Shown here piece after piece: positions 3,482 to 42,680 of a stretch of DNA of 64,000 nt. Numbering within the stretch: the stretch's first letter is position 1; each line of letters begins with the position of its first letter. Under the pieces are notes generated by a model. That model searched no databases, was not told where the DNA came from, and worked only from the letters and a program-made list of their open reading frames with translations. Source of the DNA: Candidatus Aminicenantales bacterium (lineage in GTDB: Bacteria > Acidobacteriota > Aminicenantia > Aminicenantales > UBA4085); the NCBI GenBank assembly GCA_049515535.1, contig JBEKTZ010000015.1, positions 1 through 64,000 of the forward strand, written 5' to 3'. The translations under genes were made by a program, and so were the position numbers.

Positions 3482-3650
3482 TTGACGAGCGGTTTCCCGC
3501 GGCTTGCTGCGTGAAACCGCTCGTAGAGGGATCCAAGGGGGAGCCGCCCCCTTGGTCGCAGTCCTATGCGGAGCATAGGGCGAGAAGGGGAGGCAGGGCG
3601 ACCGGGTCTTCCCGGTGCCCGTTGGAAGGGGTCTTCCCCTCCAAGTTGAC
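3482..3650 (+). repeat. Structured intergenic repeat, copy 1 (MITE/ncRNA-like)
   Basis: Shares ttgacgagcggtt...gtagagggatccaagggggagccgcccccttggtcgcag...tgcccgttggaagggg...cccctccaagttga with 26948-27148 and 42498-42680. Confidence 0.92.
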
Positions 3651-3681
3651 TTTCCGCCTTATTCCTTTTATAAATAGAGTA

Positions 3682-5043
3682 ATGGCCATTCGACGCTGCC
3701 CCTACTGCAAAGCGATCATCGACGAATCCCAGAAATATTGCAATAACTGCGGCACCCAACTCCTCTTTCCCGAGGACGAGCTTGTCGAGGAGGACATCAA
3801 GGGCGAGAAGATCATCGACGAGGACTTCAAGGATAGCGAAGCGGAATTCGATGAATCTCTGGAAGCCGGCGAAGAGGACGACGACCGGAAAGAAGAAATC
3901 GATCTCGAGAAAGTCCTGGAGGGCGGAGCGTCTTTTCCCGGCGAAGAGAAAATGGCCGAGGACGAGATCCGGGACGAAGAGCCCGTGACAAAAGTCGAGA
4001 CGTCCGTCAAGAAAGTCAAAAGAGCGGGAACAAGAGTCCCGGAAAAGGCCGATCCCGACGCCGCACCCAAGACCGGCATAAAACCGGAACCGAAAGCCGA
4101 AGCGGTGCCTGAACCTAAAGCGGAGCCCAAGACGCTGGAAAAAATCGGGAAGACAAAAGCGGAATCGGCGGAAAAACCGAAACCGAAAGAAAAAAAGGCA
4201 GCCGTCGAAGAGCCCCCCAAAAGAGCGGCGAAAACTCCGATCATCGAAGAGCGCGAAGTCCAAGCGCTGGCCGCGGATGAACCTCCTGAGGATATGGACG
4301 AAGAGCCGGAAGCGGATGAGGATGAGGAAGAAGAGGACGATCAACAAGGAGAAAGCAAGCCCGACACCGATACGCGGGAGGAGATCGTCCGGCTCATCGC
4401 CGCGCTTGAAAAGAAGCACAAAAAAAGGACGCTGTCCAAAGACGAGGAAAAGATCCTGGCGCCGCTGGAGGAAGCGGTCGATATTCCGCCCTGGGAGGCC
4501 ATGGGCCGGGAAACGGCGTCGTCGGAAGGCATCGAAGAAGAACCCGAGGAAAAATCTCCCGACAAGGACTTCGCCCCCGGTGATACGGTGGATTTCGAGG
4601 AAGAGGTTTTAAGCCGGACCAAAAGCATGTCCGCGACCCGATCGACCATCGGAATTCCCGAAACCGTGACGAAAGACAAGACCTCGTTCCCTTTCAACAG
4701 GGACGAAGAGGAATTGGAGAGCCGTCCCTACGAGGCGGGAGAGATCGAAAAGGACGTCGAACAAGAGGCCGAATCCCCGGCTTTTGAAACTCCCCGCACC
4801 CGGCTCGGGTTTTTCAGCAGGCTGACGGCCGTCGTTTTCGACCTGATTTTCGTCGCTCTCATGTGGCTCGGCGCCGCCTGGCTGGCTGCGCGCCTGATGG
4901 ACGTTCCGATCAAGACGCTGGTCTCGACGGTCCCCGTTCCCTTCGGGATCTTTTATCTCGTCCTTCTGGTGGGCTACTTATTCCTGTTCTTCTTTTTCCT
5001 GGGCGAGACGCTCGGCGGCAGGCTGTCGTCGCCGCGCGAGTGA
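3682..5043 (+). CDS. Zinc-ribbon protein with long acidic linker and C-terminal RDD-like membrane domain
   Basis: CPYC-x10-CNNCG at the N-terminus; D/E/K/P-rich middle; R..A..FD plus two TM helices and GETLG; the ORF-track extension to 3511 lies inside the repeat. Confidence 0.8.
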   Translation: MAIRRCPYCKAIIDESQKYCNNCGTQLLFPEDELVEEDIKGEKIIDEDFKDSEAEFDESLEAGEEDDDRKEEIDLEKVLEGGASFPGEEKMAEDEIRDEEPVTKVETSVKKVKRAGTRVPEKADPDAAPKTGIKPEPKAEAVPEPKAEPKTLEKIGKTKAESAEKPKPKEKKAAVEEPPKRAAKTPIIEEREVQALAADEPPEDMDEEPEADEDEEEEDDQQGESKPDTDTREEIVRLIAALEKKHKKRTLSKDEEKILAPLEEAVDIPPWEAMGRETASSEGIEEEPEEKSPDKDFAPGDTVDFEEEVLSRTKSMSATRSTIGIPETVTKDKTSFPFNRDEEELESRPYEAGEIEKDVEQEAESPAFETPRTRLGFFSRLTAVVFDLIFVALMWLGAAWLAARLMDVPIKTLVSTVPVPFGIFYLVLLVGYLFLFFFFLGETLGGRLSSPRE

Positions 5044-5780
5044 ATCTTCCGCTCTTCGCCGAAGGCGAATTCCGTTCCCAGAAACCGCTGCCGCGCTTTT
5101 TGGTCGTCGGCGATGATTTGAGGGATGTCATGGATCAGGATTTCCCCTTCGTCGATGATATAGACCCGGTCGGCGATCATGAATGTGTCGCGCACATTGT
5201 GGTCCGACAAGAGGATCCCTATCCCCCGTTTTTTGAGGGCCGCCATGATCTTTTGCAGCTCGGCAATGGTCAGGGGATCGATGCCCGTGAACGGTTCGTC
5301 CAGGAGAAGGAACTTCGGTTTGAGGATCAGGGCGCGGCCGATTTCGAGCCGGCGCCGCTCGCCTCCGGACAAGCTGTGAGCCGGTTGGGCGGCCAGCGGC
5401 AGAAGTCCGAACTCCCGGAGGATCTCCCGGGCCGGCGTTTTCCAGTCGCGCCTGGAATCGGGCTGAAGCTCAAGGGCGAGACGGAGGTTGTCCGACACCG
5501 ACGCATTGAGGAAAACGGAGTTTTCCTGGGGGAGATAAGTCAGGCCGGCGATCGCCCGCTTGTGGGTCGGGGCCCGGGAAATGTCCTTGCCGTCGATGAA
5601 GATCCCGCCGCGATCAGGCCTGATCAGCCCGACGATCATCTGGAAGATCGTCGTCTTGCCCGCGCCGTTCGGCCCGAGAAGGCCGATGATCTCCCCGGAG
5701 CGGACGGCGACGGTCACGCCTTTGACAACGAGCCGGTTCCCATAGCTCTTGACGAGTTCTCGGGCTTCAAGGATCGGCAT
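4974..5780 (-). CDS. lptB: LPS export ABC transporter ATP-binding protein
   Basis: LVKSYG..VV, GPNGAGKTT, YLPQENSVF, LSGGERRRLEI, LLDEPFTGIDP, DHNVRDT. Confidence 0.9.
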   Translation of the reverse strand: MPILEARELVKSYGNRLVVKGVTVAVRSGEIIGLLGPNGAGKTTIFQMIVGLIRPDRGGIFIDGKDISRAPTHKRAIAGLTYLPQENSVFLNASVSDNLRLALELQPDSRRDWKTPAREILREFGLLPLAAQPAHSLSGGERRRLEIGRALILKPKFLLLDEPFTGIDPLTIAELQKIMAALKKRGIGILLSDHNVRDTFMIADRVYIIDEGEILIHDIPQIIADDQKARQRFLGTEFAFGEERKIHSRGDDSLPPSVSPRKKKNRNK

Positions 5781-5806
5781 TGATGAACGCGGCCTCGGAA
5801 GCTAAA

Positions 5807-5835
5807 ATACTAAAGTCATTCGTCCGGGCTGTCAA
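5807..5835 (-). promoter_or_regulatory. sigma70 promoter for lptB
   Basis: TTGACA-N17-TAGTAT. Confidence 0.55.
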
Positions 5836-5841
5836 GGAAAG

Positions 5842-6693
5842 ATGAAAAAGATCGTCAGCGCTTCCCGAAGGACCGACCTGGTCGCCTTTTTCCCGGACTG
5901 GCTGGCCCGCGTTTTCCGGGAGGAAAAAGCGCGGATCATCGGGCCGCGCGGCCGTGCTTACGAAGCGGACTTGACGCCATCGGCCGTCCACACCGTCGTC
6001 CTCTGGTCCAAGGATTTTTCCCATTTGATCGGCGACGCCCACGGAATTCGCCGGGCTATAGGAGCCTACGATCAGATTTATTTGCTGTTCACGGTCACCG
6101 GGCTCGGCGGGACGTTCATCGAAAAGGGCGCCCCATCGCCGGCCGCGGCCCTCGCCCAGCTTCCCGCGCTCGTGTCCTTGGCCGGAAATCCAAAGCGGGT
6201 TTCCCTCCGCTTCGACCCGGTCGTGTTTTGGAGGGAAGAGTCGGCGATCAAAAACAATCTTCATTTCTTCGCCGAGGCCGCCGAACGGGCGGCTTGCGCC
6301 GGCATCGAAGATATCCGGATCAGTTTCGCCCAGTGGTATGGAAAGGGCCTGCACCGGGCGCGAAAAAACGGATTCGATTATGTGGACCCCGGCGAGAACG
6401 AAAAAATCGACGCGGCCTCGAGCTTGGCGGAGACGGCCCATCAATGGAAGCTCTCTCTTCATGCCTGCAGCCAGAATTTTCTGACGCGCGTCCCCGGCAT
6501 TCGGGCCTCGGCCTGCATCGACGGGAAGCTTTTGCGGGATCTGCATCCGCGGAAGGAAGAGGCGTCGACGATCCAGGACAAGAGCCAGCGCGACGAATGC
6601 GGCTGCACGGAATCCGTCGATATCGGCAGCTATACGCAGGCCTGTCCGCACGGCTGCCTTTATTGCTACGCGAATCCGAATATCGCGATATGA
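5842..6693 (+). CDS. DUF1848 family protein (Fe-S/radical SAM-related)
   Basis: SASRRTD..AF N-terminus, LRFDP, and C-terminal CGC..S.DIG.Y...CPHGCLYCYAN. Confidence 0.88.
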   Translation: MKKIVSASRRTDLVAFFPDWLARVFREEKARIIGPRGRAYEADLTPSAVHTVVLWSKDFSHLIGDAHGIRRAIGAYDQIYLLFTVTGLGGTFIEKGAPSPAAALAQLPALVSLAGNPKRVSLRFDPVVFWREESAIKNNLHFFAEAAERAACAGIEDIRISFAQWYGKGLHRARKNGFDYVDPGENEKIDAASSLAETAHQWKLSLHACSQNFLTRVPGIRASACIDGKLLRDLHPRKEEASTIQDKSQRDECGCTESVDIGSYTQACPHGCLYCYANPNIAI

Positions 6694-6820
6694 TCTCCCC
6701 CGCCGGCATGATAAAAATCGTTCGACGGCGATGGGAAAATAAATCTATAATAATGCAAAGGAAAAGCCGGTTTTTTTGTCAAAATTGAGTTAGGCGACAA
6801 CATGATGGAGAGGATGTGGA

Positions 6821-7753
6821 ATGGAGCAAATCTCGGTCCGCCGACTGACTCATCGTTATCGCGGAGGCCAGGTCGCCCTTAAAGACGTCGATTTCGATAT
6901 CGGCAAGGGGATATTCGGGCTTCTCGGCCCCAATGGGGCCGGGAAGACCACCCTGATCCGGATCCTTGTGACCCTCCTCGAACCCACGTCCGGCCAGATC
7001 ACGATCAACGGACTGGATCTCAAAAAAAACCGCAAGCGGATTCGGGAACTGACGGGTTACCTCCCCCAGGAATTCTCCTCGTTTCCCCGGCTGACGGCAT
7101 GGGAATTTCTGGACTACGTGGGCAGTTTGAGAAGGATCCGGCCCCGGCAAAAGCGCCACGCGCTCGTGGAGCAGGTCCTCGAGGACGTGGGCCTTTACGA
7201 AGCGCGCGATCGGAAGGCCGCCAATCTTTCGGGCGGCATGAAACGAAGGCTGGGCATCGCCCAGACGCTTCTCGGCGATCCGAAGATCCTGATCATCGAC
7301 GAGCCGACGGCCGGCCTGGACCCGGAAGAGCGGGTCCGGTTCCGCAACCTGCTCTCGGATCTTTCCCGAAAGGACAAAATTATTCTTCTTTCGACGCACA
7401 TCGTGGGCGATATCTCCTCCACGTGCATGCGCATCGCTCTCTTGGATAAGGGCCGGGTCGTTTTCGACGGATCGCCGACGGCCTTGACCGACGAGGTCAG
7501 AGGGAAAGTCTGGAAGGCCTCGGTTCCGGCCCTGGAGATGGACGCGATCAAAACCAAGTACCCGGTGATCTCGGCGGTTCCTTCGGAATTGGGATACGAG
7601 CTTCGGATCGTCGCTGACCGATATACCGAAGGGACGGCGGAAACCCTGGAGCCGAATCTCGAGGATGCCTACGTGTATTTCATGCGTTCACAAGCCGGTC
7701 CCTCTCCGTTTTCAAGCGAACTTTTTCCGGTCGATGATAGGAGCCAAGGATGA
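6821..7753 (+). CDS. ABC transporter ATP-binding protein (ABC-2 exporter type)
   Basis: GPNGAGKTT, LSGGMKRR, DEPTAGLDPEER, STHIVGD. Confidence 0.93.
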   Translation: MEQISVRRLTHRYRGGQVALKDVDFDIGKGIFGLLGPNGAGKTTLIRILVTLLEPTSGQITINGLDLKKNRKRIRELTGYLPQEFSSFPRLTAWEFLDYVGSLRRIRPRQKRHALVEQVLEDVGLYEARDRKAANLSGGMKRRLGIAQTLLGDPKILIIDEPTAGLDPEERVRFRNLLSDLSRKDKIILLSTHIVGDISSTCMRIALLDKGRVVFDGSPTALTDEVRGKVWKASVPALEMDAIKTKYPVISAVPSELGYELRIVADRYTEGTAETLEPNLEDAYVYFMRSQAGPSPFSSELFPVDDRSQG

Positions 7754-11310: not shown

Positions 11311-11346
11311 GCGACCGCCGAGGAAATTCCTATTCTATCAGGAGCG

Positions 11347-16900: not shown

Positions 16901-17017
16901 GCCGTCGCCGTGACCGGAGGGCTGATCAGCTCCACGTTCCTGACTCTTGTCGTGATCCCGGCCGTTTACCGCCTGATGGGAAAGCGAACCCTGACCCCCG
17001 GAGAAAAACGTTCATGA
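13931..17017 (+). CDS. RND efflux permease (AcrB/CzcA family)
   Basis: 1028 aa; TM4 [35 protein letters not shown]. Confidence 0.93.
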
Positions 17018-20000
17018 TCGAGTTCTTCATCCGGCGTCCCGTCTTCGTGGCCATGATCCTGATCGGCTTCTGCCTCCTCGGGGTCATCTCCTATCTGCAG
17101 CTCCCCATGGAGCTTTTCCCCCAGTCCGAATCACCGCGGATGATCGTCACCGTCCGCGGCAGCCAGACCTCGGATCCCGCCTACGTCGAGCTGCATGCCG
17201 TCATCCCCCTGGAAAGCGCCATCGCCGGTCTGGACAAGATCGAGCGGATCGAGACGCAGATCGACCAGCGGCGGGCGACGATCTACGTCTATTACGGGAA
17301 AGACGTCAACCTGAAATACGCCTACCTCAAGCTCCAGCAATGCGCCTCGACGGTCCGGACTCAGATCGGGACCGAGTTCACGTTCACGGTTTCGAAGTCC
17401 GACACCGAGCAGCTCTCCAACCGGTACCTCGTCCTCCAGGCGCGGGGTGAGGGAAGCCTCGACCAGATCCGGGCGATCATCGACGAAAAGATCACGCCCG
17501 AACTGTTGAGCATCGACGGCGTCGCGAGCGTCGAGGTCTACGGCGGCCGGAAACGCTCGATCGAGGTCCTCCTGGACGATGACGCCATGAAATCCTACGG
17601 ACTGACCGTGGGCCAGGTGCAATCGAAAATCTCCGAACAGTCCGGCAAGCGCGTTTACCTCGGCCAGGTCCACGATGCGCGGAAGGAGTATTTCGTCAAT
17701 CTGATCAGCGAATATTCGACGCTTCCGGCGATCGGAGACCTCATCGTCAAGGACAAGGGGCCTATCGTCCTCAAGCAAATAGCGAAAATTTCAGAAGGCG
17801 GAGCGGATCAGGAGACGATTTCCCGCATCAACGGCCGGGAGGCCGTCACCCTCTCGCTCCAACGGAGCTGGGAAGCCAATCTGATCAGCCTCGCCGGACG
17901 AACCCGCCAGGCCGTCTCGAAGCTCGATGAGACGGTCAAGCCGGACGGAGTCAGCCTGGTCATCGAAGATGATACGGCCAAAACGATCCAAGACAACATG
18001 CAGTCCATTTTCTGGCTGATCGTGGCGGGAGGGCTTCTGGCCATCGCCGTCCTCTGGCTATTTCTGCGCAATGCGTCCCTGGTCTTGACGGTTTCGGCGA
18101 GCGTTCCCATCTCCATCCTCATTTCCATGAATGTCTTTTACGCGCTGCACATCACGATCAACACGCTGACGATGGTCGGGCTGGCCATCGCCATCGGGAT
18201 GCTCGTGGACTGCAGCGTCGTCGTCCTGGAGAACATCGTGCGCCACGCGGACCGGACGCCGGATGTCCGTCACGCCGTCGTCCACGGGACGACGGAAGTG
18301 GCGCGCGCGGTCTTCGCCTCCACGCTGACGACGATCGCCGTTTTTCTGCCGTTCCTTTTTTCCACCAACTCCGAAGTGCGGACCCTGGGCGCGCAGGCCG
18401 GCGCCTCCATCATCACGACGCTGCTCATCTCTCTGGCCGTGGCTTTTTTCCTGATCCCGGTTCTGGCTTTCCGGTTCTTCACCCGCCGCCAAAAGAAAAA
18501 CGCGGGGAAGCCGGCCTCCGTCCGCCCGCTGAGCCGGATGAGGCAGATTTACATCGTCTTGCTGAAAACCAGCCTGCGTTATCCGGCCCGGACGCTCGTC
18601 GCGACGGTCGCCCTTTTCTTCTTGAGCCTCGGCTTGTGCTTGACTCTCAGCGTCAACGTCCCGCGCGAAGTCCAGTTGCTCACGTTCAACATCTACGCCG
18701 TGATGCCTTCGGGAACGACCCTCGAGACCGCCGACGATCAGGTCAAAACCATGGACGGACTCCTCCAGAACATCCCCGAAGTCTCCGAGCGGCTGGCGAC
18801 GATCGAGGAAGATAACGTCACGCTCACGTTCAAGCTCGTCGATGATTTCCATCAAACGTCCTCGCGCACCGTCACGGAGATCACGGACGACATCATCGGC
18901 CGTCTCTCCAAAGCTTACCCGCGCATTGATTTCTCCACGACGGAGCCCCAGCAGAACTCCCGCTATATGGGAGGATCGGGGGGCGCGGGAGGCCTGGGCG
19001 GAGGTGGAAGCGGCCGGCAAAGCGGGGTGAGCTTGACCCGGCTGCTCGGCATCGGCGCCGCCCAGGAAAAAGTCCTGGTCCGGGGCCAGGACCTGGGACT
19101 CCTCCGCTCCGTGGCCGAGGACGTCCAGTACAACATCTCCAACCTGGAAACGGTCCTGAGCGCGCAAATCAGCGTCGCGAACCAGTCTCCGAGCCTCGAT
19201 CTCCTTCTCGACCAGGCCTCGATGAGCCATTTCGATGTCAGCCTCCAGAACGTGAGGAACGAGCTGTCGGGCTTCCAGAAAGAAACCACGGCCGATGTCA
19301 AATTCAAGGCCGGGAACGATGAGTTCGACATCATCCTCAAGAGCGCCTCCGATAAGGAGAAAAAAACCGAGGACCTTCGAAGGCTCCAATTCCCATCCTC
19401 GACCGGAGGGCTCGTCCCGCTCCAGCAGATCTCGCGTCTCGTGTATTCCACGGGATATTCCAATATCAACCGGGTCAATCAGGAAAAGCAGGTCCAAGTG
19501 ACTTACCGGTTCAACACCGACATCGAGCAATCCAAGAGTCTTCTCGAGGCGGCCCGGACATCCGTGGAAGATATCGTGTCCAGTATCACGCCGCCGCCCG
19601 GGGTGATCATCGAGGTCGTTCGCGACGAAAGCGACATGTCGGAGTTCTATTTCCTGATCGCTCTCGGGATCCTCCTGATCTACATGGTCCTGGCCTCGAC
19701 GTTCGAAGGCTTCCGAACGCCGCTGGTCATGATGTTCACTCTGCCGCTGGCCGGGATCGGGGCGTTTTCCGGACTCGCCCTGACCTCCAATTCGCTTTAC
19801 AACGCTAATGTCCTGATCGGATTTCTCATTCTTTTCGGCGTCGTGGTCAACAACGGCGTTCTTCTGATCGATTATTCCCGCCGGCTCGAGCGCCAGAAAC
19901 AGAGGCGGGAGCGGGCGTTGATGACGGCGGGCTTGACCCGCGTCAGGCCCATTCTGATCACGGCCATCACCACCATCCTGGGCATGCTTCCGGTCGCCAT

Positions 20001-21744
20001 GGGCAAGCAGGCGTACGTCTCCCTCATCGGCGCGCCGTTCGCGATCACGGTGATCGGGGGATTGGGAGTGGCGACGCTTTTCACCTTGGTCCTGATCCCG
20101 ACGTTTTCTTTCGGCCTCGAGAACGCCCTGAAGTGGTGGCGCGGATTGAATTGGAAGACCAAGGCGATCCAGGCTTTGATATTCGCCGCCGGGGAATGGT
20201 TCCTCATCGCCGAAATCGATTCCTTCCTTTGGCAGGTGGCGTACTCCTTGATCCTGTTCGTGGGCATTCCGTCGTTCACTTTTTTCGCCTTGACGAGCTT
20301 GCGGCGAAGCCGGACGAAACTGGTCCCGCCGGGAACCTCCTTGACCATCACCATCCGAAACATCAGCAAGCTTTATGACGATTTCGCCCGGTTCACGAAG
20401 GAATGGCGCAAGGGCCAACGGGAAAAAGAACACCGGAACGTGTCCGCCTCCGTCCTCCGCCATGAGCGGAGGCAGACTCTTCTCTGGGAGATCCCCATCT
20501 ATGGATTCCTGATCTATTTCACTTATTTTTACTTGCAGGGGGCGGCCTGGCTTTTGCTTTTTTCGGTGCTGGACTATCTGCTCGTCATGAGGCTCATTGA
20601 GATCCGGACGGTGAGCGGAAAACCCACCGGAGGGATTTCCGGACGGGCGAGGCTATGGAAGCTGATCTCGGCCTTGATCGCCTGGGGCCTGCCTCTGGCC
20701 AACGGCATTTGGTTGCAATCCCGCTGGCAGAGGTTGGGGGCCGTGCTCGTCGTCATGGTCCTGTGGTACGGGGCCCTCCTCGTTTACCGGACCTCGCGCA
20801 AGATCGAAGAGCGCAACATCAACATCAACCGCGTCACTGGCCGTGGACGCAGAGCCAGGACGATTTTTTATCGGTTCGTCCGGAAGATCCCGGTCATTGG
20901 CGGCCGGCGCGCTCCTTTTCAAGCGCTGGACCGGATTAGCCTGGAGATCGGCAGCGGCATGTTCGGCCTGGTCGGTCCCAACGGATCCGGGAAGACGACG
21001 CTGATGCGGATCATCTGCGGGATCCTTCCTCCGAGCCGGGGGAAAGTCTATTTCAACGAGCTGGACCTCGGCGAGTTCCGGGAAGAACTCCAGGCGCTCA
21101 TCGGATACCTGCCCCAGGAATTCGGCACCTACGAAAACATGACCGCCGCCCAATTCCTGGACTATCAGGCCCAGCTCAAGGGCCTCTGGAACCGGCGGAA
21201 ACGGCGGGCGGCCGTGGACGCGTCCTTGCGCTCCGTCCATCTCTTTGACCGGAAAGACGACCGGATCAGAACGTATTCCGGCGGAATGAAACAGCGTCTC
21301 GGCATCGCCCAGACGCTTCTCCATCTTCCCCGGATCCTCGTGGTGGACGAGCCGACAGCGGGCCTCGACCCGACGGAGAGAATCGCTTTCCGCAACCTTC
21401 TTTCGGAATTGGCCCGCGACCGCATCGTGATCTTCTCGACCCATATCATCGAGGATATTTCCATCTCCTGCAACCGGCTCGCGATCCTGCTCAAGGGCCG
21501 GGTGCGATTCATCGGAACCCCGACCGAGCTGGTCAATCTGACGAGAGGCTCGGTCTGGCAGATCTTCGTGGATGACGCGGGCTTCGAATCGATTCGCCGG
21601 GTCCATAAGGTCGTCCATCATCTCCGCGACGGGAACAGGATCAGGGCCCGGATCCTCTCCGCGAAAAGGCCGGCGGAGGACGCCCAGCCGGTCGTCCCGA
21701 CGCTCGAGGATTCTTATATGTGGCTGCTGGGACAGGAGGGATGA
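17014..21744 (+). CDS. RND permease fused to extra TM helices and a C-terminal ABC ATPase
   Basis: RND motifs (GMLVDCSVVVLEN, RVRPILIT) followed in the same frame by GPNGSGKTT, YSGGMKQR, DEPTAGLDP, STHIIED. Confidence 0.9.
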   Translation: MIEFFIRRPVFVAMILIGFCLLGVISYLQLPMELFPQSESPRMIVTVRGSQTSDPAYVELHAVIPLESAIAGLDKIERIETQIDQRRATIYVYYGKDVNLKYAYLKLQQCASTVRTQIGTEFTFTVSKSDTEQLSNRYLVLQARGEGSLDQIRAIIDEKITPELLSIDGVASVEVYGGRKRSIEVLLDDDAMKSYGLTVGQVQSKISEQSGKRVYLGQVHDARKEYFVNLISEYSTLPAIGDLIVKDKGPIVLKQIAKISEGGADQETISRINGREAVTLSLQRSWEANLISLAGRTRQAVSKLDETVKPDGVSLVIEDDTAKTIQDNMQSIFWLIVAGGLLAIAVLWLFLRNASLVLTVSASVPISILISMNVFYALHITINTLTMVGLAIAIGMLVDCSVVVLENIVRHADRTPDVRHAVVHGTTEVARAVFASTLTTIAVFLPFLFSTNSEVRTLGAQAGASIITTLLISLAVAFFLIPVLAFRFFTRRQKKNAGKPASVRPLSRMRQIYIVLLKTSLRYPARTLVATVALFFLSLGLCLTLSVNVPREVQLLTFNIYAVMPSGTTLETADDQVKTMDGLLQNIPEVSERLATIEEDNVTLTFKLVDDFHQTSSRTVTEITDDIIGRLSKAYPRIDFSTTEPQQNSRYMGGSGGAGGLGGGGSGRQSGVSLTRLLGIGAAQEKVLVRGQDLGLLRSVAEDVQYNISNLETVLSAQISVANQSPSLDLLLDQASMSHFDVSLQNVRNELSGFQKETTADVKFKAGNDEFDIILKSASDKEKKTEDLRRLQFPSSTGGLVPLQQISRLVYSTGYSNINRVNQEKQVQVTYRFNTDIEQSKSLLEAARTSVEDIVSSITPPPGVIIEVVRDESDMSEFYFLIALGILLIYMVLASTFEGFRTPLVMMFTLPLAGIGAFSGLALTSNSLYNANVLIGFLILFGVVVNNGVLLIDYSRRLERQKQRRERALMTAGLTRVRPILITAITTILGMLPVAMGKQAYVSLIGAPFAITVIGGLGVATLFTLVLIPTFSFGLENALKWWRGLNWKTKAIQALIFAAGEWFLIAEIDSFLWQVAYSLILFVGIPSFTFFALTSLRRSRTKLVPPGTSLTITIRNISKLYDDFARFTKEWRKGQREKEHRNVSASVLRHERRQTLLWEIPIYGFLIYFTYFYLQGAAWLLLFSVLDYLLVMRLIEIRTVSGKPTGGISGRARLWKLISALIAWGLPLANGIWLQSRWQRLGAVLVVMVLWYGALLVYRTSRKIEERNININRVTGRGRRARTIFYRFVRKIPVIGGRRAPFQALDRISLEIGSGMFGLVGPNGSGKTTLMRIICGILPPSRGKVYFNELDLGEFREELQALIGYLPQEFGTYENMTAAQFLDYQAQLKGLWNRRKRRAAVDASLRSVHLFDRKDDRIRTYSGGMKQRLGIAQTLLHLPRILVVDEPTAGLDPTERIAFRNLLSELARDRIVIFSTHIIEDISISCNRLAILLKGRVRFIGTPTELVNLTRGSVWQIFVDDAGFESIRRVHKVVHHLRDGNRIRARILSAKRPAEDAQPVVPTLEDSYMWLLGQEG

Positions 21745-26947: not shown

Positions 26948-27148
26948 TTGACGAGCGGTTCCCCGCGGCAAGCCGCGGGAAACTGCTTGTAGAGGGATCC
27001 AAGGGGGAGCCGCCCCCTTGGTCGCAGTCCTATGCGGAGCATAGGGCGAGAAAGGGAGGCAGGGCAACGCCGTTTTGTACCCTAAAGTACAAAACGGTGT
27101 GCCCGTTGGAAGGGGGAAACGCGAAGCGGGTTCCCCCTCCAAGTTGAC
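26948..27148 (+). repeat. Structured intergenic repeat, copy 2
   Basis: Same conserved core as copy 1, with longer hairpins 4 and 5. Confidence 0.92.
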
Positions 27149-27249
27149 ATCGTATATCGGCCGAGGATATATTTCGGGAGCAGGCATGACGATATTCGCT
27201 GCTATATGCGATCCGTAAGCATGCCGCGTGAAAGTCGAGCGAAAAACCG

Positions 27250-27843
27250 ATGGCGACGCAGATTCTTGATGGGGCAGAAGCCATGAGTATTGGCGGCAAC
27301 GAACAGGAGCGGAGTCTCGCCCTGGCCGCGCAACGCGGCGATTCGGGAGCGTTTCGGGAACTCTACGATGCTTATCGCGAGCGGATCTGGACCCTGGTCG
27401 TTTATTCGATCGGAGATGCCCTCCAGGCCCAGGACGTGCTGCAGACCGTCTTTCTTAAGGCATTCCGGGGTCTCCGGAGTTTCAGGTTTCAATCCAGTCT
27501 GTTTACGTGGATTTACCGGATCGCCTGCAATGAATGTCGGAATTATCACCGGCGGCGCGGCATTCGGCACGTGCCTCTCGAGGCGATTCTCGGCAGCAGC
27601 GACGAAATGGATAGGAGGCCCATCTCGGACGGCCTCGAGGCGCGCAGGGTCATCCTGCGAAACGCGGTGATACAATTGCCTTTCAAGATGCGGGATGTCA
27701 TCGTGCTGAAGTACGTCGAAGAGCTTTCCTATGAAGAGATGAGCCGGGTGCTCGGGTGCTCGCCCGGGACGGTGGCTTCAAGGCTGAACCGGGCGTTGGC
27801 GGAACTCGAAGAAAGGCTGCGGCCTTTCAGGCGATTCTTGTGA
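27250..27843 (+). CDS. ECF RNA polymerase sigma factor
   Basis: GD..AF.ELY, AQDVLQTVFLKA, FTWIYRIA.N, LSYEEMS.VLG...GTV.SRL.RA; start may be 27283. Confidence 0.93.
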   Translation: MATQILDGAEAMSIGGNEQERSLALAAQRGDSGAFRELYDAYRERIWTLVVYSIGDALQAQDVLQTVFLKAFRGLRSFRFQSSLFTWIYRIACNECRNYHRRRGIRHVPLEAILGSSDEMDRRPISDGLEARRVILRNAVIQLPFKMRDVIVLKYVEELSYEEMSRVLGCSPGTVASRLNRALAELEERLRPFRRFL

Positions 27844-30137: not shown

Positions 30138-32620
30138 AATCTCCGATGGTCCGTCATCCGAAAGTCAAAAAATTCTTGGCGGGATCGGTCGTCTGCATTC
30201 TTTTCGCGGGAGTCACGCTTTTGCAGACCTTCCCGCTTTCCCTCGATCCCGCGCATGCGGTCTATGATCCGGGCGATCCGCTCTTGAATGTCTGGATCCT
30301 GTCCTGGGTCGGCGAGCATCTCGTCCAGGGGCCGTTCCGCCTCTTTGAGGCGAATATTTTCTATCCGTATCACCAAACGCTTGCCTTCTCGGAGCATTTG
30401 CTCCCGCTCAGCGTTCTGTCGGCCCCCGTTTATTTCCTGTCGCGGAATCCCATTCTCCGCTACAACCTCCTCCTCTACCTGACCTTCATCCTCAACGCCC
30501 TGGGGATGTTTTTTCTCGTTAGACATTTGACCCGGAACAAATGGGCGGGCGTCGTCAGCGGTCTTATTTTTTCCTTCAGCGCTTTCAAGATCATGCACAT
30601 CTCGCACCTTCAACTTCTGAGCTCGATGGGTATTCCCTGGTGTTTCCTCTATCTCCATAAATGGATGGCTGAAAAGAAATGGACGAACGCTGCCCTTTTC
30701 TCGTTTTTCTTTTTGCTGCAGGCCCTCAGCTGCGTCTATTATGGGCTCTTCTCGATGGCCATTCTGGTTTTGATCCTTCCCCTCTTTCTCCTTTTCAATA
30801 AGCGGTCGTTCGATCTTCCCTCGCTGGCGAAGCTGGCCGCCCCTCTCGTTCTCGCCGGCGGCATCCTGTATGCCTTCTCCCTTCCCTACCTGCGAGTTTT
30901 TCGCGCGCTCGGCTTGAAACGGGGATTGGCGGCGGGAGCGGAAGTCCAAAACTACCTGGCCGTCCTCCCGACGAATCTCCTTTTCGGCCGGCTCCTGTCC
31001 GGATGGGGCGAGCCTGAGAGATATCTTTTTCCCGGCCTGGCCGCCTGCGTCTTGATGATCGTCGCGATCGCCGGCAGGAGCATGTTTGCGGCCGGGGCCG
31101 ATCGAAGCGGGATTGTCCGGCGTATCGGCAGCGTCGCGAAGATCCTTTTCCTCGCCCTCGTGGCCGCGAACCTCCTGAGCCTTGTCGTCGCCCTGGCGGG
31201 GGGCGTCAGCTTTGCCTGGGGCGGACTCAAGTTTTCGGCGAACCGGGCGGAAAAACCCCTTCTCTTTCTTTTTATCCTTGGCGCTCTCTTTCTTGCCGCC
31301 AAGGTTTTCGAACGCCTCAGGGCCCGGCCAGAAGCGGACCGGAGCGCCTGGATTCTGGGCTATTCAATTCTGGCGTTCTGGGCCGCTCTGCTGTCGTTCG
31401 GCGCCGTTTTCACGCTCTCGGGAAAGACCACGACGGCTTTTCCGATGCCCTTTCCCTGGTTTTTCCGGCATGTGACCGGGTTTGACGGGATCAGGGAGCC
31501 GGCCAGAATCTCCGTTTTCGTGCTTTTCGGCATCAGCGTCCTGGCCGGCTTCGGCTGGGAACGGATCCTGGCCAAAATGACTAAAAAGGCCTGGCGGGGC
31601 GTCTTGACGGGAGCCCTCCTTGTTTTCATCAATCTCGAGTATCTTTCCATTCCCATCGAAGGCATCTCCGTCCCTGTCGGGAAGGATCTCCCGCCCACCT
31701 ACGCATGGCTCAAAGAGCAAAGGAAGGAAGCCGTTGTCCTGGAGCTTCCGTTCGCCGAGTGGATCCCCTGTGAGGCCCTCTATCTTTATTTCTCCACGTA
31801 CCACAAAAAAAGAATCGTCAACGGCTATAGCGGGTTCATCCCGGCTTCGGCCTATTGGCTGAAGGAGACGTTCAGGAAATTCCCCGATCCGGAGAGTCTC
31901 CGTCTTTTGGAAGCCCTCCACGTGGATTTTGTCGTTTTTCACGCGAAGCTGCTCCCCCCGGCGTTCGTTCCCGGCGTCGCGGCGCAAAGCGAATCCCTCA
32001 CCGGCGGAGAGCTCCGTCTGGCCGCGCGTTTTCAATATCCCTTCTCCCGGCCGAACACGTTCAAGGAATTTCTCGGGGACGATCTCGTCTTCTCCGTCCA
32101 TCCGGAACGCGCTTTCCGGAAATCGGGACCGGCCGAGGAGTCGCCGGCCATGGCCGAAATCCCTTCCGACCAATGGCGGATCACGGTCTCTCAAAATCAG
32201 CCGGCGGCTTCTTTGATGACGGACAAGGATCTTGCCTCCGGCTGGACGTCCGAGAAGGCGATCAGGCCCGGTGAATTCATCCAGATCGACCTCGGAAAAG
32301 CCCGTGATGTCCGCAGGGTTTCCATTTTTGGCGGCGCGACCTATTATGATTACGGCCTGGATTTTCAGATGGAAATCTCAGATGACGGGGCTCATTGGCG
32401 GCCCGTCCCATCGCGGTTCTCGAAGGCGGAATTTTGTCTTTCGCTCATCGCGGATCAGGTCCATGCTAATCAAGATCTGTGGCTGGAGGGCGGCCCGGCC
32501 AGATATCTGAAGATCATCCAGACGGGGAAAAGCGAGGCGTTCTCCTGGTCGGTCTCGGAATTGCGGATTTTCGAACGCCTGCCCTCAACCGGACGTCAGG
32601 CCCCAAACGAGGCGCGCTAG
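30134..32620 (+). CDS. GT-C/YfhO-like membrane protein with C-terminal discoidin (F5/8 type C) domain
   Basis: GDPLLNVWIL, EANIFYP, IREPAR, VNGYSG; C-terminal W....IQIDLG...SDDG..W...ARYLKI....WSVSEL; ATG overlaps the upstream stop. Confidence 0.78.
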   Translation: MKSPMVRHPKVKKFLAGSVVCILFAGVTLLQTFPLSLDPAHAVYDPGDPLLNVWILSWVGEHLVQGPFRLFEANIFYPYHQTLAFSEHLLPLSVLSAPVYFLSRNPILRYNLLLYLTFILNALGMFFLVRHLTRNKWAGVVSGLIFSFSAFKIMHISHLQLLSSMGIPWCFLYLHKWMAEKKWTNAALFSFFFLLQALSCVYYGLFSMAILVLILPLFLLFNKRSFDLPSLAKLAAPLVLAGGILYAFSLPYLRVFRALGLKRGLAAGAEVQNYLAVLPTNLLFGRLLSGWGEPERYLFPGLAACVLMIVAIAGRSMFAAGADRSGIVRRIGSVAKILFLALVAANLLSLVVALAGGVSFAWGGLKFSANRAEKPLLFLFILGALFLAAKVFERLRARPEADRSAWILGYSILAFWAALLSFGAVFTLSGKTTTAFPMPFPWFFRHVTGFDGIREPARISVFVLFGISVLAGFGWERILAKMTKKAWRGVLTGALLVFINLEYLSIPIEGISVPVGKDLPPTYAWLKEQRKEAVVLELPFAEWIPCEALYLYFSTYHKKRIVNGYSGFIPASAYWLKETFRKFPDPESLRLLEALHVDFVVFHAKLLPPAFVPGVAAQSESLTGGELRLAARFQYPFSRPNTFKEFLGDDLVFSVHPERAFRKSGPAEESPAMAEIPSDQWRITVSQNQPAASLMTDKDLASGWTSEKAIRPGEFIQIDLGKARDVRRVSIFGGATYYDYGLDFQMEISDDGAHWRPVPSRFSKAEFCLSLIADQVHANQDLWLEGGPARYLKIIQTGKSEAFSWSVSELRIFERLPSTGRQAPNEAR

Positions 32621-32632
32621 CCCGCCCTCGCC
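32554..32632 (+). repeat. 79-bp direct repeat, copy A (3' end of the discoidin-domain gene)
   Basis: 73/79 identical to 34198-34276. Confidence 0.9.
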
Positions 32633-34197: not shown

Positions 34198-34276
34198 CTC
34201 GGAATTGCGGATTTTCGAACGTCTGCCCTCAAACGGACATCCGGCTCCAAACGAGGCGCGCTAGCCCGTCCTCGCC
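34198..34276 (+). repeat. 79-bp direct repeat, copy B
   Basis: Intergenic duplicate of 32554-32632 with 6 mismatches. Confidence 0.9.
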
Positions 34277-34491: not shown

Positions 34492-34536
34492 ATAACCCCA
34501 GCCGCCGTTTCCAAATTGTGCCCGCCGAAAAATCGA

Positions 34537-34565: not shown

Positions 34566-34612
34566 CTAACCATAATCGAGGGGCCTTCCCCGGTTCAGGG
34601 AGGAGGTGCTTT

Positions 34613-35662: not shown

Positions 35663-35674
35663 CGGTTATCCGTA

Positions 35675-38077: not shown

Positions 38078-40496
38078 CTGGCTCCTCCTCGGGGCCGCGA
38101 TGATCTGGTCCGAAGGGACCTTCGGCTGGCGGAGTGCCGCCGGCAGCGCGGCGCTGATCGCCGTTGCCGTAGCCTGGCTCTGGAAGTCTGGCGCTCTCTC
38201 AGCGGCGGGCGTTTCGGCCGCGCGGCCCGCGTATGCGCTTCGCGTTCTTTCCGCGGCCGCGCTGCTGGGCCTGGCTGTCTGGATGGGCGGCGCTTACATT
38301 TATCTCTCCGCCCTCGTCGCGCTGGCTCTCGTTCTCGACCGCGGAGCCGCGCCCCAGGTCCGCCGCTTGATGGATGCCGTTCTCGCCGCGGCCTGGTTCA
38401 TCGGCCTCATGACGCTTGTCCGGGCCGTCGTCGGGGCCCGCCTTCATGACCTGCCCGCGGCGACGCCCATTCTTGCCGCCGTCGTGCGCGCCCTCGGCTT
38501 CAACGCCTCGTTCCAGGGATATATCGTTCACGTCCAGCAATCGCATCAGGTTCTCTCCGTCGCAGTCAGCTGGCCGCTTCTCGGCGGATGGGCGATCCTC
38601 GCCCTCGTCGTCGGCCCGATCGTTCTATTCTTTACGGGCTCGATCAAGCCGCGCCTTGGTCAGATTCTCAAATTCGCCGCGGCGCTCGTTGCCGGCGCCC
38701 TGATCCGCCTCGTGCTGATCGTCGTCTTCCTCACGGAAGCGCCTTCCCGGGTGACGGTCCTCTTCCATCCGCTCGTCCAGCTCGCGACGATCCTTCCCAT
38801 TCTTCTTGCGCTTCGCGGCTGGGAGAGGCGGGAGACGGCCCGCTCATTCCGCGCGGCCGCCCTCTTCCGCGTCGGTCTATTTGCCCTTGCCGGGATCGGC
38901 CTTGGGATGGCTCTGTTCTGGATGCCGGCCGGATCGGTCAAAGCCGGCCGCCTGATGATCGACGAGACGCATTCGAACTGGGAACTCTCGACCGAGAAGA
39001 TGGACACCCATTGGTATGGGCGGTACTCGACTTACAGCTTCTGGACGCTGGCCCGCTGGCTCGATCATTTCTACGAAGTGAGGACCCTGACATCCGGCCG
39101 TCTCGACGCGGCCGCTCTCGCCGCCGGCGATGTTCTCATGCTCAAGTGCCCGACCCGCGCCTATGAGCCCGCTGAGGTCGCGGCCGTGCTGGATTTCGTC
39201 CGGGGAGGCGGGGGAGTCCTGATGGTCGGCGACCACACCGACGTCTTTTCCATGAACACCTACCTGAACCAGATCGCCGGGCCCCTCGGCCTGCATTTCA
39301 ATTATGACGCGACCTATGATTTTCTGACCGGCGCGCTTTCGAATTTCCAACCGCCCCGTGGCGGGCGCCATCCGATCGTCCGCGGCGTCGATGAGTTCGA
39401 TTTTATGACCAGCTGCACCCTGTCCCTGGGCCGGAACGCGCGGCCGGTCATCGTCGGGCCGGGGCTCATCGTCGGCCAGGCCGATTACTCGACCCAGAAT
39501 TTTTTCGACCGGCCGAGCCCGTTCATCAAGGCGGGGAGCCTCCCGGGGGCGTTCGTCCAATCGGCCGCCGGCGAATACGGCCGCGGCCGGTTCTTCGCCT
39601 GGACGGACAGCACGTGCTGGTCGAACTTCTCCGTCTTGATGGACGGCAACCCAGCCCTCATCCAGGGCGTGATGGCGTTTCTGAACCATCGCGCCGCTCC
39701 GATCGATGGACGGGTCGCGGGGTTGATCGTGATGACGCTGGCCGCGGTGATCCTGGCGGCTCTACGGAAAAAAGGGGGCCGCCCTATGCGGGATGTCGCG
39801 ACGACCGCGTTCCTGGCCGGCGTTATGGCCACGGCCCTTCTTGCGTCCGTTCTGCACGCGCGGATTTATCGGCCGCCAGCACCGCGGACTGAGATGACCC
39901 GGGTCGCCTTCGACCTGGCCCACGGCGATTTTATCCTCCGGCCCGCTTCGGGAATGTCCGTGGACATCAACCGGAGCGACCGGAAACTTCTCGACCTATC
40001 CACTTTCTATGTCTGGAGTCAGCGCCTCGACCTTTTCCCGAATGAGGCCCTCGGCTGGAGCGAACTCGAACAAGCCTCCATGGTCGTTCTGCCGCTGCCC
40101 GGCCGCAACTTGAGCGAAAAGGACGCCAAGCGGCTTCTCGCCTGGGTGCGCGGCGGAGGCCGGCTCCTTGTCCTGGCCGACGCCCAACACGAATCATCGC
40201 GGGCGCATCTCCTTCTCAACCCGGCCGGACTCGCTGCCATACCCGGGATCGCTTATACGGGCTACGGCACGCCCGTCCTGACGATTCAGGGAGGCGAGGT
40301 TCTCTGGAAAGACGACCGCGGCCGCGTCGTCGCCGCGCGCGCACGGCTGGGAAAGGGGATGATCGTGGCCTGCGGTGTCGCCCGCACCTTCGGCGCGGCG
40401 GTCATAGGCGGGGTGTTCACCGAACCGGATGCCGACCGTGAACGCGTTTACGAATTCGAGTATACTCTCCTCCGTGCCTGCCTCGAACTCAAATGA
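38058..40496 (+). CDS. Paralogous membrane protein with exosortase-like TM region and two GATase-like (DUF4350-like) domains
   Basis: IDETH...DVLMLKCP...FVRGGGGVLMVGDHT...GRGRFFAWTD; FDLAH...GKGMIV; overlaps the upstream ORF by 20 bp. Confidence 0.78.
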   Translation: MEKTNISWLLLGAAMIWSEGTFGWRSAAGSAALIAVAVAWLWKSGALSAAGVSAARPAYALRVLSAAALLGLAVWMGGAYIYLSALVALALVLDRGAAPQVRRLMDAVLAAAWFIGLMTLVRAVVGARLHDLPAATPILAAVVRALGFNASFQGYIVHVQQSHQVLSVAVSWPLLGGWAILALVVGPIVLFFTGSIKPRLGQILKFAAALVAGALIRLVLIVVFLTEAPSRVTVLFHPLVQLATILPILLALRGWERRETARSFRAAALFRVGLFALAGIGLGMALFWMPAGSVKAGRLMIDETHSNWELSTEKMDTHWYGRYSTYSFWTLARWLDHFYEVRTLTSGRLDAAALAAGDVLMLKCPTRAYEPAEVAAVLDFVRGGGGVLMVGDHTDVFSMNTYLNQIAGPLGLHFNYDATYDFLTGALSNFQPPRGGRHPIVRGVDEFDFMTSCTLSLGRNARPVIVGPGLIVGQADYSTQNFFDRPSPFIKAGSLPGAFVQSAAGEYGRGRFFAWTDSTCWSNFSVLMDGNPALIQGVMAFLNHRAAPIDGRVAGLIVMTLAAVILAALRKKGGRPMRDVATTAFLAGVMATALLASVLHARIYRPPAPRTEMTRVAFDLAHGDFILRPASGMSVDINRSDRKLLDLSTFYVWSQRLDLFPNEALGWSELEQASMVVLPLPGRNLSEKDAKRLLAWVRGGGRLLVLADAQHESSRAHLLLNPAGLAAIPGIAYTGYGTPVLTIQGGEVLWKDDRGRVVAARARLGKGMIVACGVARTFGAAVIGGVFTEPDADRERVYEFEYTLLRACLELK

Positions 40497-40517
40497 TCGC
40501 CCGCCTCGCCGGCCATA

Positions 40518-41231
40518 TTATTTCTTTATCCTATATCCCGCTTTCTTTATGCAAGCCCGCGCGGCGATTTGCATCGGCTCAATGAGAGGGACGGAGAGGT
40601 CCGATTCCCGCAGGACGAGCGGGACCTCGGTGCATCCCGCGATGACGGCTTGGGCGCCGCGGCCGATGAGCCGGCGGGCGGCCCGGACAATCATGGTCCG
40701 CGGGCGTCCCGACGCGAATCCCGCTTTGATGCCGCAGTCGCCGAGGATGGCTTCCATGACCGCCTTTTGTTCGCGCTCATCGGGCGTCAGGATCTCGATC
40801 TTTTTTTTCCCGAAGACGTCATGCCAGAGCCGGGATTCCACTGTTCCCGTGGTGGCGATGAGTCCCGCTTTCTTGAGGCCGGGGATGTTGACGGCGGCGT
40901 AGCGCAAGGCCTCATCGAGAAGGTTGACGAACGGCACGTTCGACCGGGTTTCGATTTTCGAAGCCCAGTAATGGGCCGTGATGCAGGGCATGACGATCAG
41001 CTCCGCCCCTCCCTTTTCCAGGATCTTCACGCCTTCGAGGAGCGAGGGGAGCGGGCTGCGGCGGCCGTCGAGGATGGCGTCCGTCCGCGGCGGGATTTTT
41101 GGGTTGTTCCAGACCAAGACTCGAATGTGCTCCTGGTCCGAGAGGGCGTCCGTGTTTTTTATGATCAGGCCGAAAAAATAAGCCGTCGCTTCGGGCCCCA
41201 TCCCCCCGAGGACGCCGATCGTCTTCTTCAT
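40518..41231 (-). CDS. Aspartate/glutamate racemase
   Basis: IGVLGGMGPEAT, IPPRT, PCITAH, GCTEVP. Confidence 0.93.
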   Translation of the reverse strand: MKKTIGVLGGMGPEATAYFFGLIIKNTDALSDQEHIRVLVWNNPKIPPRTDAILDGRRSPLPSLLEGVKILEKGGAELIVMPCITAHYWASKIETRSNVPFVNLLDEALRYAAVNIPGLKKAGLIATTGTVESRLWHDVFGKKKIEILTPDEREQKAVMEAILGDCGIKAGFASGRPRTMIVRAARRLIGRGAQAVIAGCTEVPLVLRESDLSVPLIEPMQIAARACIKKAGYRIKK

Positions 41232-41276
41232 GATTTCCTCTCCGGTAAAAAATAGGGCAATAGGTATCGTGTTTCC

Positions 41277-42416
41277 CTATTTGATGAATTCTTTGATTTT
41301 GTCCAAAGGCAGGGCCGCGACGACGCGGCCGTTCTTCCCCTCCATCCGCTGAGCTTTGAACAGCGAGTTGAGAATAGCCTCCTCCGTCGCTTCGGCCGCG
41401 GCCAGAAAAAGAGTGGACAGGTTATCGTTCCGAAGGACGGTTATCGTCTGCGTCGGCGAAGCCGAACGGTACGGGACTCGGACCTCCTTGGCCGTCGAGA
41501 AAGCGACGGCGTAGTCGCCGCTCCCATTGGCGTTGGTTCCGCCCGTCCGGGCGATCCCGAGAAGAGCGCGCTTGGCGAGTCGCTTCAAGTTGCGGCTGTC
41601 GAGAGGCGCGTCGGTCGCGACGACGATCATGCACGAGCCTTCGACCGGCGGATCGTCGCGCCATCGGGGATCTTCTTCCGGGCTTCCCGGCGTGATTTTC
41701 AATTTATCGCCGAGGGGAATCCCGGCGATCCGGAGGAGGCCTCCGTGGTTGGTCTGGACCAGAACGCCGACGGTATAACCGCCCCGCGCGGCCAGGAGCT
41801 TTCTTGAGGCGGTCCCGATCCCCCCCTTGAAGCCGTAACATTCCGTCCCCGTCCCAGCGCCGACCGCGCCTTCTTCGACAGGGCCGGAACGGGCGGTCCG
41901 GATGGCCGCGAGCACGTGTTCTTTCGTCACGTGCCGGCCGCGGATGTCGTTCAGACCGCCGTCGTTGGTCTCGCCGACGACGGGGTTGACCGAGGCGATG
42001 TTCTCGTTTTCAGGAAGCCCCAGGATGTAGTCGATGACGGCTTCGGCGGCCGTGGGCACGCTCAGCGTGTTGGTCAGAACGATCGGCGTTTCGAGATTGC
42101 CGAGCTCGTCGATCTGGGTCGAGCCCGTGAGTTTTCCGAACCCGTTGGCGACATCGACGGCGGCCGGGACCTTGTCCTGGAAGATGTTGCCTTCGTGAGG
42201 CAGGATCGCGGTGACTCGCGTTCGGACGTCCCGGCCTTCGATGAGCGTCACCTGGCCGACGCCCACACCCGCCACGTCGGTGATGGCGTTAAGCGGTCCC
42301 GGTTCAAGGACGCCGATCTTGATGCCGAACTCCCTGAGGCGCGGCCGGTCTTCCGGCGCGAAACGGACGCCGCCCGCGAGAAAAAAAAGAAGCGCGCAGA
42401 AAGCAAAAGATTTCAT
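41277..42416 (-). CDS. DmpA-type aminopeptidase (peptidase S58/P1 family), exported
   Basis: NAITDV.GV.VG, NGFGK..G, GETNDG.LND, GAGTG, G-S autocleavage site EGSCMIVVATDAPL, GSGD. Confidence 0.92.
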   Translation of the reverse strand: MKSFAFCALLFFLAGGVRFAPEDRPRLREFGIKIGVLEPGPLNAITDVAGVGVGQVTLIEGRDVRTRVTAILPHEGNIFQDKVPAAVDVANGFGKLTGSTQIDELGNLETPIVLTNTLSVPTAAEAVIDYILGLPENENIASVNPVVGETNDGGLNDIRGRHVTKEHVLAAIRTARSGPVEEGAVGAGTGTECYGFKGGIGTASRKLLAARGGYTVGVLVQTNHGGLLRIAGIPLGDKLKITPGSPEEDPRWRDDPPVEGSCMIVVATDAPLDSRNLKRLAKRALLGIARTGGTNANGSGDYAVAFSTAKEVRVPYRSASPTQTITVLRNDNLSTLFLAAAEATEEAILNSLFKAQRMEGKNGRVVAALPLDKIKEFIK

Positions 42417-42497
42417 GGCTTTCCTCGATCTTCGCGACGATGAAGCTTATGATACATTCCCCTCTCTTAAAGGGCAATATTTTCGTCCGCCCGTCTT

Positions 42498-42680
42498 TTG
42501 ACGAGCGGTTCCCTGTGGCTTGCCACGGGGAACCGCTCGTAGAGGGATCCAAGGGGGAGCCGCCCCCTTGGTCGCAGGGAGGGGTTTCATGCCCCCCCGA
42601 GAAGGGGAGGCAGGGCGACCGGGTCTTCCCGGTGCCCGTTGGAAGGGGGAAACGCGAAGCGGGTTCCCCCTCCAAGTTGA
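42498..42680 (+). repeat. Structured intergenic repeat, copy 3
   Basis: Same core as copies 1 and 2; hairpin 3 replaced. Confidence 0.92.

Follow-up and report, generated by a model that had tools for sequence, protein, structure and literature searches.

What is the structure that recurs between unrelated genes on contig JBEKTZ010000015.1 of a Candidatus Aminicenantales bacterium (assembly GCA_049515535.1)? The window analysed here, positions 1 to 64,000 of that contig, carries three copies of it, all on the + strand and each with five hairpins, as the window sequence and the folding of copy 2 bear out. A sequence-only reading had set their limits at 3482-3650, 26948-27148 and 42498-42680; these are trimmed here, and the element proper probably occupies 3485-3648 (copy 1), 26951-27146 (copy 2) and 42501-42679 (copy 3). 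The same reading left a choice between a non-coding RNA (ncRNA) and an element mobilised as single-stranded DNA (ssDNA). Empty sites, replichore bias, GCGNAGC loops confined almost entirely to one strand and homology to an IS200 left end speak for the second option, and the first is not needed: the element is mobile DNA and not primarily an RNA gene. It is probably a non-autonomous mobile element, assembled from the left end of an IS200 and further hairpin modules.

Copy number, mobility and the folded strand

Many copies of the element exist, and close strains differ in having or lacking it; it makes no target duplication and folds on one strand, which lies mostly on the G-rich strand. It is 160-300 nt long and contains no gene. 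BLASTN against the source genome (G000, a 3.45 Mb draft; C1 to C13 below are its contigs, and L numbers are loci examined) returned 41 loci, of which about 35 are the element, whole or truncated, the remainder being fragments, sister repeats or the IS200 hairpin. Both orientations occur, so that the shared orientation noted at the outset holds inside the window but not genome-wide. The family extends to relatives, with matches in 21 of 41 Aminicenantes genomes searched. The pattern of its right end was found in at least 105 stretches of a genome collection, and the 80 matches listed come mostly from Candidatus Aminicenantes or from generically labelled metagenome-assembled genomes; viral contigs scanned with the hairpin-2 pattern gave 0 matches. 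I did not find a description of the family in the literature searched, a search that had most subscription papers and ISfinder outside it.

Evidence for movement comes from other sequencing runs. Copy 2 is absent from one contig in each of the runs X3 and X4 (depth 6.0 and 2.6, from two studies), where a single TTGAC remains and gives TTGACA-17-TATATT, and in contigs of runs X5 and X6 a 46-nt deletion removes the left end of copy 3. A metagenome scan for an empty site of the copy on C13 yielded one locus, filled and identical. Among copies the pentamers at the 5′ and 3′ ends are often unequal, which argues that no target duplication is made.

The folding is strong and one-sided. Compared with 200 shuffles, copy 2 has a z score of -8.3 as RNA and -8.8 as DNA, with 0/200 shuffles as good, and the + strand of the element folds better than its complement in 78/83 copies (RNA) or 77/83 (DNA). 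Loops of the type GCGNAGC, which are specially stable in DNA, number 46 on the + strand and 1 on the - strand. In the relative G013, which is assembled in one contig, 26 copies were kept (core-only low-identity matches left out), and 22 of these fold on the G-rich strand, against 58/103 for TTGACT sites (p=0.005); without the two copies nearest a skew switch the count is 20/24. Sixteen samples of GC skew in this genome give a positive arc that runs from about 3.6 Mb round to 1.45 Mb, with mostly negative values over the rest. The IS200 copies of another relative, G026, lie on the G-rich strand in 11 cases of 11, skew having been sampled there at 4 places. The G-rich strand is the lagging-strand template.

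Is the structure itself under selection, rather than the sequence, as had been proposed? Across 48 aligned copies 96% of cells pair in the named structure, and 13 of 37 pairs have changed on both sides; no shuffle in 500 reaches the element's values, in a test that is inflated by kinship since related sequences can pass without selection, and slid controls reach 45-56%. The stem-1 alternatives GCGGC/GCCGC and GTGGC/GCCAC are present, as are the C>T changes that leave G-T (in RNA, G-U) pairs on the + strand. Template switching, however, can yield paired double changes without selection, and hairpin 1 has been perfected in some copies (L136, L186) and has lost its inner stem in others, so the paired changes are not proof of selection on an RNA. 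The proposal thus stands as far as pairing is kept, but the core sequence is itself conserved at 88-100% per column, and the losable inner stem and the perfecting of hairpins do not fit it.

The exchange of distal hairpins fares better. Copies 1 and 2 have hairpin 3 in common, copies 1 and 3 hairpin 4, and copies 2 and 3 hairpin 5, just as the sequence-only reading had it, and 17 parsed copies of the source genome include all four pairwise combinations of the hairpin 3, 4 and 5 variants, so that module shuffling is real.

Several other repeats in the source genome deserve mention beside the element. Three longer repeats with terminal inverted repeats (C8:163038-163349, C3:68900-69229 and C5:55939-56294) hold the element's hairpins 2-5 inside. 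In family D the element's hairpin 5 and purine linker recur as well; families exchange modules. Family B, the largest cluster with 124 repeated regions (for example C1:204913-204980), has an outer stem enclosing a CCCCGGGC-loop-GCCCGGGG hairpin that resembles a second IS200 type, ends in TTGAC, and lies on the G-rich strand in 45 of 58 cases. In family C (about 18 copies, for example C3:238279-238394) both ends covary with the four bases that precede the hairpin (CATA-TTGAT, TATA-TTTAT); it resembles a standard one-hairpin palindrome-associated transposable element (PATE) and serves as a natural control.

The IS200 connection and the junction

The source genome carries an IS200-type tnpA on C9, and the ends of that IS200 have the same hairpin as hairpin 1 of the element. 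Alignment shows the 5′ half of the element to be homologous to the left end of this local tnpA-only IS200: the aligned part is 56-60 nt long and 75-79% identical (E as low as 8e-8), with the hairpin core identical across 23-25 nt. Such an IS200 is present outside the window's contig, as just described, and in relatives. A further shared feature is the T after the right end, found in 67/94 element copies and 16/17 IS200 copies, compared with 354/1490 intergenic TTGAC. Intact cognate-looking TnpAs are present in relatives; L036 and L037 carry intact TnpAs of this IS200 subfamily. Within the window there is no cognate transposase, as had been stated; the Y1 transposase matches of the source genome are solely on C9 and C13. 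Neither TnpB nor IscB was found in that genome, the control for IscB having given no match.

Some observations on IS200 stand apart from this homology. The IS200 at L001:1418-2026 (C9), the copy with a stop in tnpA, interrupts a gene whose N-terminal part matches HTH_7 and which looks IS1-like. In G026, 5 of 11 IS200 copies (L080, L081, L085, L086, L089) adjoin GACCCC-type repeats, such as are known from the flanks of TIRYT genes; element copies L065, L108 and L109 adjoin such repeats too. An empty-site comparison for the IS200 at L034 gave a match limited to the tRNA part.

Where, then, does the element end? The standard IS200 rule expects host TTGAC, the element, and then an element-borne TTGAC. 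The 91 full copies (3 mis-anchored rows having been dropped from 94 for the junction, module, decay and bulge/guide analyses) depart from this in a lopsided way: TTG deviates in 31/91 at the 5′ end and in 3/91 at the 3′ end, and AC deviates in 4/91 at the 5′ end and in 20/91 at the 3′ end. The 3′ asymmetry persists in loci found without requiring TTG (3/201 vs 16/134 sites, p=1e-4), and decay is no further advanced in copies with non-AC ends, which at the 3′ side include window copy 3 and those at C1:21169, C13:83538 and C9:140776, than in the rest.

Empty sites were compared for 12 element loci. The orthologues from genus g8, which decide between the two cuts, belong to different species at 77-98% identity, so that arguments from single bases carry some risk. 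Four are clear. L078 reads TA|AC...TTG|GC when filled, and its orthologous empty site is TAGC; L102 ends TTG|TC and the empty site is CTGTC; L070 ends TTG|GC and the empty site is AAGGC; L071 ends TTG|AA and the empty orthologue is CTGAA. L098 agrees with TTG|AC in part and L186 weakly, L133 is neutral, and none of the 12 favoured the standard cut. The orthologues of L073, L075 and L190 were too diverged to inform, and L181 had none; counter-tests on the 5′ non-AC copies L190 and L181 accordingly found no alignable orthologue. The empty site of window copy 2 is compatible with either cut. Taken together, the end statistics and the orthologous empty sites make it most likely that the element runs AC...TTG and interrupts a relaxed TTG|AC(T) hexamer after its third base, and it appears joined two bases from the usual IS200 cut.

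As a separate observation, two independent truncated copies, C9:159597-159653 and C1:163016-163058, start at the same place in the hairpin-4 loop with TTGA before each. The pair suggests an alternative enzymatic cut, and fits TTGA|C or TTGAC| but not TTG|AC.

A number of results weigh against an IS200-derived element joined at TTG|AC. That junction breaks the guide rule, by which a tetranucleotide 13-14 nt upstream can be predicted from the four bases that precede the hairpin, and which 7/7 local IS200 left ends obey (under the three pairs of the IS608 pairing scheme, two of which are given in PMC3201880); in multi-copy IS200s the tetranucleotide is strict, GCAC in 11/11 and CTAA in 6/6. The guide bulge of hairpin 1 is missing from 22/91 element copies, and the inner hairpin is not recognised in 7. 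In most copies a G(A/T)TC tetramer precedes hairpin 2; tested as a candidate guide, this foot does not covary with the base that TTG follows (p=0.5). The right end has no IS200 right-end hairpin or guide and no match to the IS200 right end, and no autonomous element with the element's right end turned up in the Y1 loci or genome-scan loci examined. The tnpA of the source genome has an internal stop. The drafts G004, G007, G010 and G017 hold many copies and no IS200-type tnpA match, and G026 and G039 hold 11 and 6 IS200 copies with 0 and 1 element matches. Replichore bias in the draft source genome is weak (22/32, p=0.26 vs background). Lastly, at L133/L287 vs L288 the 3′ C>T change is explained equally well by either cut. 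Beside these, no element module lay near a Y1 gene in the 51 loci examined, which cover about half of the Y1 matches.

Could the element instead be an ordinary PATE, moved by the IS200 TnpA with the standard cut after TTGAC? Variation at the 3′ end would then be later decay, with gene conversion keeping the interior uniform and promoter selection keeping TTG. The placing of hairpin 1 and a guide-like TATG/CATG tetramer, some 10 nt beyond TTGAC and matching the IS200 left end, suits this account, as do a +1 T preference and a replichore bias like those of IS200, the lean towards transitions among the 3′ A and C changes, and the L133/L287 vs L288 pair, which is compatible with decay. Yet the four clear empty orthologues already hold the host dinucleotide now seen at the 3′ end (GC, TC, GC, AA), so that two coincident changes would be needed in each; private divergence is about 1.2% per site, compared with 12% at the 3′ AC; and the bulge-less copies have the same flanks as the others. 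I consider the ordinary PATE unlikely.

Three further explanations were considered. Rolling-circle HUH nick sites read TTG|A or G|AC, and mobilisation by such an enzyme (an IS91/ISCR Y2 or a plasmid Rep) would accommodate the topology of the TTG|AC junction, where one end shows the TTG of the host and the opposite end a TTG carried by the element, the head-to-tail copies, and the Y2 remnants present in 5/5 genomes searched. It is nevertheless very unlikely: the local IS91-like elements end in AAAAAGCAAAT..TAT and have nothing in common with the element, Rep_2 and Rep_trans were not found in 41 genomes nor Rep_1 in 5 (a weak negative, its control having given no match), and the link in sequence is to IS200. 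Still less probable is a structured ncRNA or cis-regulatory RNA family kept for its function at these loci, which could draw on the strong one-strand folding, the paired changes and the position of copies upstream of genes. Against it stand the unrelated neighbour genes, the empty alleles, the left-end deletion in two other studies' contigs, the truncated and nested copies, and the replichore bias; and since the element lies upstream of promoter-like sites, it would not be in those transcripts. An Rfam scan at the gathering threshold matched solely the neighbouring tRNA, the other matches by E-value being sub-threshold and due to chance. Hardly credible, finally, is a non-autonomous partner of an IS110/IS1111 recombinase or a reverse transcriptase (RT). 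IS110 genes do occur in 4/5 genomes and some copies are 5′-truncated; but similarity to IS110 or RT loci runs no longer than 12-14 nt, no core is common to both junctions (L078), no RT was found in the source genome or in 3/4 relatives, and 3′-truncated copies occur too. For the IS91, Rep_1, Rep_2, Rep_trans, IS110 and RT partners, then, no link to the element was found in the searched genomes, and they were set aside.

How would an IS200-derived element joined at TTG|AC move? A HUH Y1 enzyme acting in trans, most likely the TnpA of this IS200 and otherwise a RAYT/TIRYT-type relative, would bind the hairpins on the single-stranded lagging-strand template, release a circle and reinsert it, cutting at G|A instead of after TTGAC. 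Strand transfer or recombination between copies would shuffle the modules. In its most specific form, which I put forward tentatively and rate a little short of an even chance, the proposal is that an IS200-born element has escaped the IS200 guide rule, and that a Y1/HUH enzyme makes the join at G|A, halfway through a hexamer resembling a sigma-70 -35 box, with a loose reading of the sequence on either side of the cut.

Insertion sites and the window

Does the element seek promoters? A -10 hexamer (TAnnnT) lies 16-18 nt 3′ of 18/91 copies, compared with 408/1490 ordinary intergenic TTGAC (p=0.14; genes were called by the codon model of this analysis), and a -10-like hexamer peaks at a spacing of 17 nt, with 11/91 copies. 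Orientation toward the downstream gene is seen in 26/33 copies, against a background of 268/373. As both counts match background there is no preference beyond the motif, and promoter targeting is rejected, the -10 frequency not being above that of ordinary sites. Survival in such places, and not promoter seeking, explains the pattern. Because the element starts with AC and ends with TTG, it would rebuild -35 boxes and stop codons; copies would persist in intergenic DNA, where TTGAC often serves as a -35 box or consists of a stop codon and a C, as the terminal TTG would restore the -35 box and the first A could complete a TGA or TAA stop. Four copies in the source genome overlap the stop codon of the upstream gene.

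The three window copies all lie in divergent intergenic regions. Copy 1, whose AC...TTG ends are set by the junction statistics, has a bulge-less hairpin 1 and a short hairpin 5, and sits between a tRNA gene (3354..3426, - strand, a match to Rfam) and a zinc-ribbon gene at 3682. Just 5′ of it, on the + strand, is a second left-end-like motif, TCGACGAGCGG (3469..3479), possibly the remnant of an earlier insertion; head-to-tail and nested element ends also occur in L005, L008 and L009. A predicted promoter-like site, TTGACT-17 nt-TATAAA (3646..3674, + strand), is oriented toward the zinc-ribbon gene, its TTG derived from the element and the remainder from the host.

Copy 2, between a TonB receptor gene and an ECF sigma gene, shows the parts most fully, all on the + strand. 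Hairpin 1 (26951..26990) has an outer stem of the ACGAGCGG/CCGCTCGT type that encloses the inner CCCCGCGG-loop-CCGCGGGG hairpin common to IS200 ends. Hairpin 2 (26999..27021; CCAAGGGGG/CCCCCTTGG) is the best-conserved stem and resembles the second hairpin of the IS200 left end. Three further hairpins follow: hairpin 3 (27026..27046), an exchangeable module with the GCGGAGC loop variant, hairpin 4 (27061..27102), an exchangeable module in its long variant, and hairpin 5 (27104..27142), also a long variant, with a GCGAAGC loop and then the R-TTG end. The promoter-like site here, TTGACA-18 nt-TATATT (27144..27173, + strand), points toward the ECF sigma gene at 27250, and its spacer is 17 nt in the empty allele. 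Copy 3, between genes for an S58 peptidase and a laccase-like protein, has TTG|AAT as its 3′ junction.

The window has other features besides the element. A 1576-aa open reading frame (17014-21744) fuses an AcrB-type RND domain to an ABC ATPase domain. A 79-nt direct repeat (32554-32632 and 34198-34276, 92%) with no further genome copies lies around part of a 620-aa open reading frame without a Pfam match, and its second unit is followed by sequence resembling the left part of local IS91-like remnants. An 85-nt intergenic stretch (43427-43511) is missing from the contigs of runs X5 and X6, and a 34-nt inverted repeat (51458-51491 and 58205-58238, 79%), its arms 6.7 kb apart, was not found elsewhere in the genome.

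Comparison with known systems

The element very probably works as PATEs and REPINs do, that is, as non-autonomous ssDNA moved by a Y1-type enzyme, a broad statement that takes in the ordinary PATE with the standard cut. Among short mobile DNAs, it shares with MITEs (miniature transposable elements with inverted repeats) only the general habit (small size, no coding capacity, many copies, reliance on an enzyme in trans), and differs in having no terminal inverted repeats and no target duplication. The oriIS motif common to local IS91-like elements, the mark of the IS91/ISCR group, is absent from it.

PATEs, as PMC3119063 describes them, are closer. They too lack terminal inverted repeats, carry palindromes close to their termini that are related to the ends of IS200/IS605, make no target duplication, are too short for a transposase, and show strain-specific insertions, core deletions and nesting. 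However, both ends of a PATE derive from an insertion sequence and the junction follows a target of 4-5 nt, whereas the present element is IS200-like in its left part only, ends on the right in an unrelated hairpin, has five exchangeable modules, and is joined at TTG|AC. With IS200/IS605, IS608 and ISDra2 (PMC3201880, PMC6006769) it shares one active strand, hairpin ends and a lagging-strand-template bias (22/26), the last being the strand that IS608 and ISDra2 target (PMC6006769), as well as the hairpin of the local IS200 and the T after the right end. It differs in containing neither tnpA nor tnpB and in a target relaxed on both sides of the cut, where IS200/IS605 insert 3′ of a strict tetranucleotide, which is selected by the four bases immediately 5′ of the left hairpin.

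The third comparison is with repetitive extragenic palindromes (REP), the bacterial interspersed mosaic elements (BIMEs) and REPINs that they compose, and their TnpA-REP (RAYT) enzymes. These are likewise intergenic mosaic hairpin repeats with shuffled modules, and PMC3333891 describes enzymes of low specificity whose cut falls within a dinucleotide and which give rise to mosaics; in PMC8266576, a GTAC guide redirected TnpA-Mb cleavage to GA sites in vitro. The element, in contrast, has no GTAG/GGAG foot (its feet are xATG, G(A/T)TC and xxCG), its ends are fixed and homologous to an IS200 end, and in the loci examined no RAYT gene was flanked by its repeats. Its right end and its probable cut, neither of which follows IS200, together with the missing REP foot distinguish it within the PATE/REPIN kind, to which it is assigned.

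Were the cut standard, the element would be merely an undescribed PATE family. A shifted cut rule, on the other hand, would extend what is known of Y1 target choice, and weak sites such as TTT|ACT-17-TATAAT would have been turned into consensus ones, making the element a source of promoter-up alleles in Aminicenantes. For the host, copies part promoters from upstream sites in dozens of divergent intergenic regions and leave the -35/-10 core intact. The family bears on how REP/BIME-type mosaics arise from IS200/IS605 ends: the element keeps a recognisable IS200 left end, and its junction follows a REP-like cut within a dinucleotide. If the shifted cut is true, the element would stand naturally midway from IS200 ends to REP/BIME mosaics.

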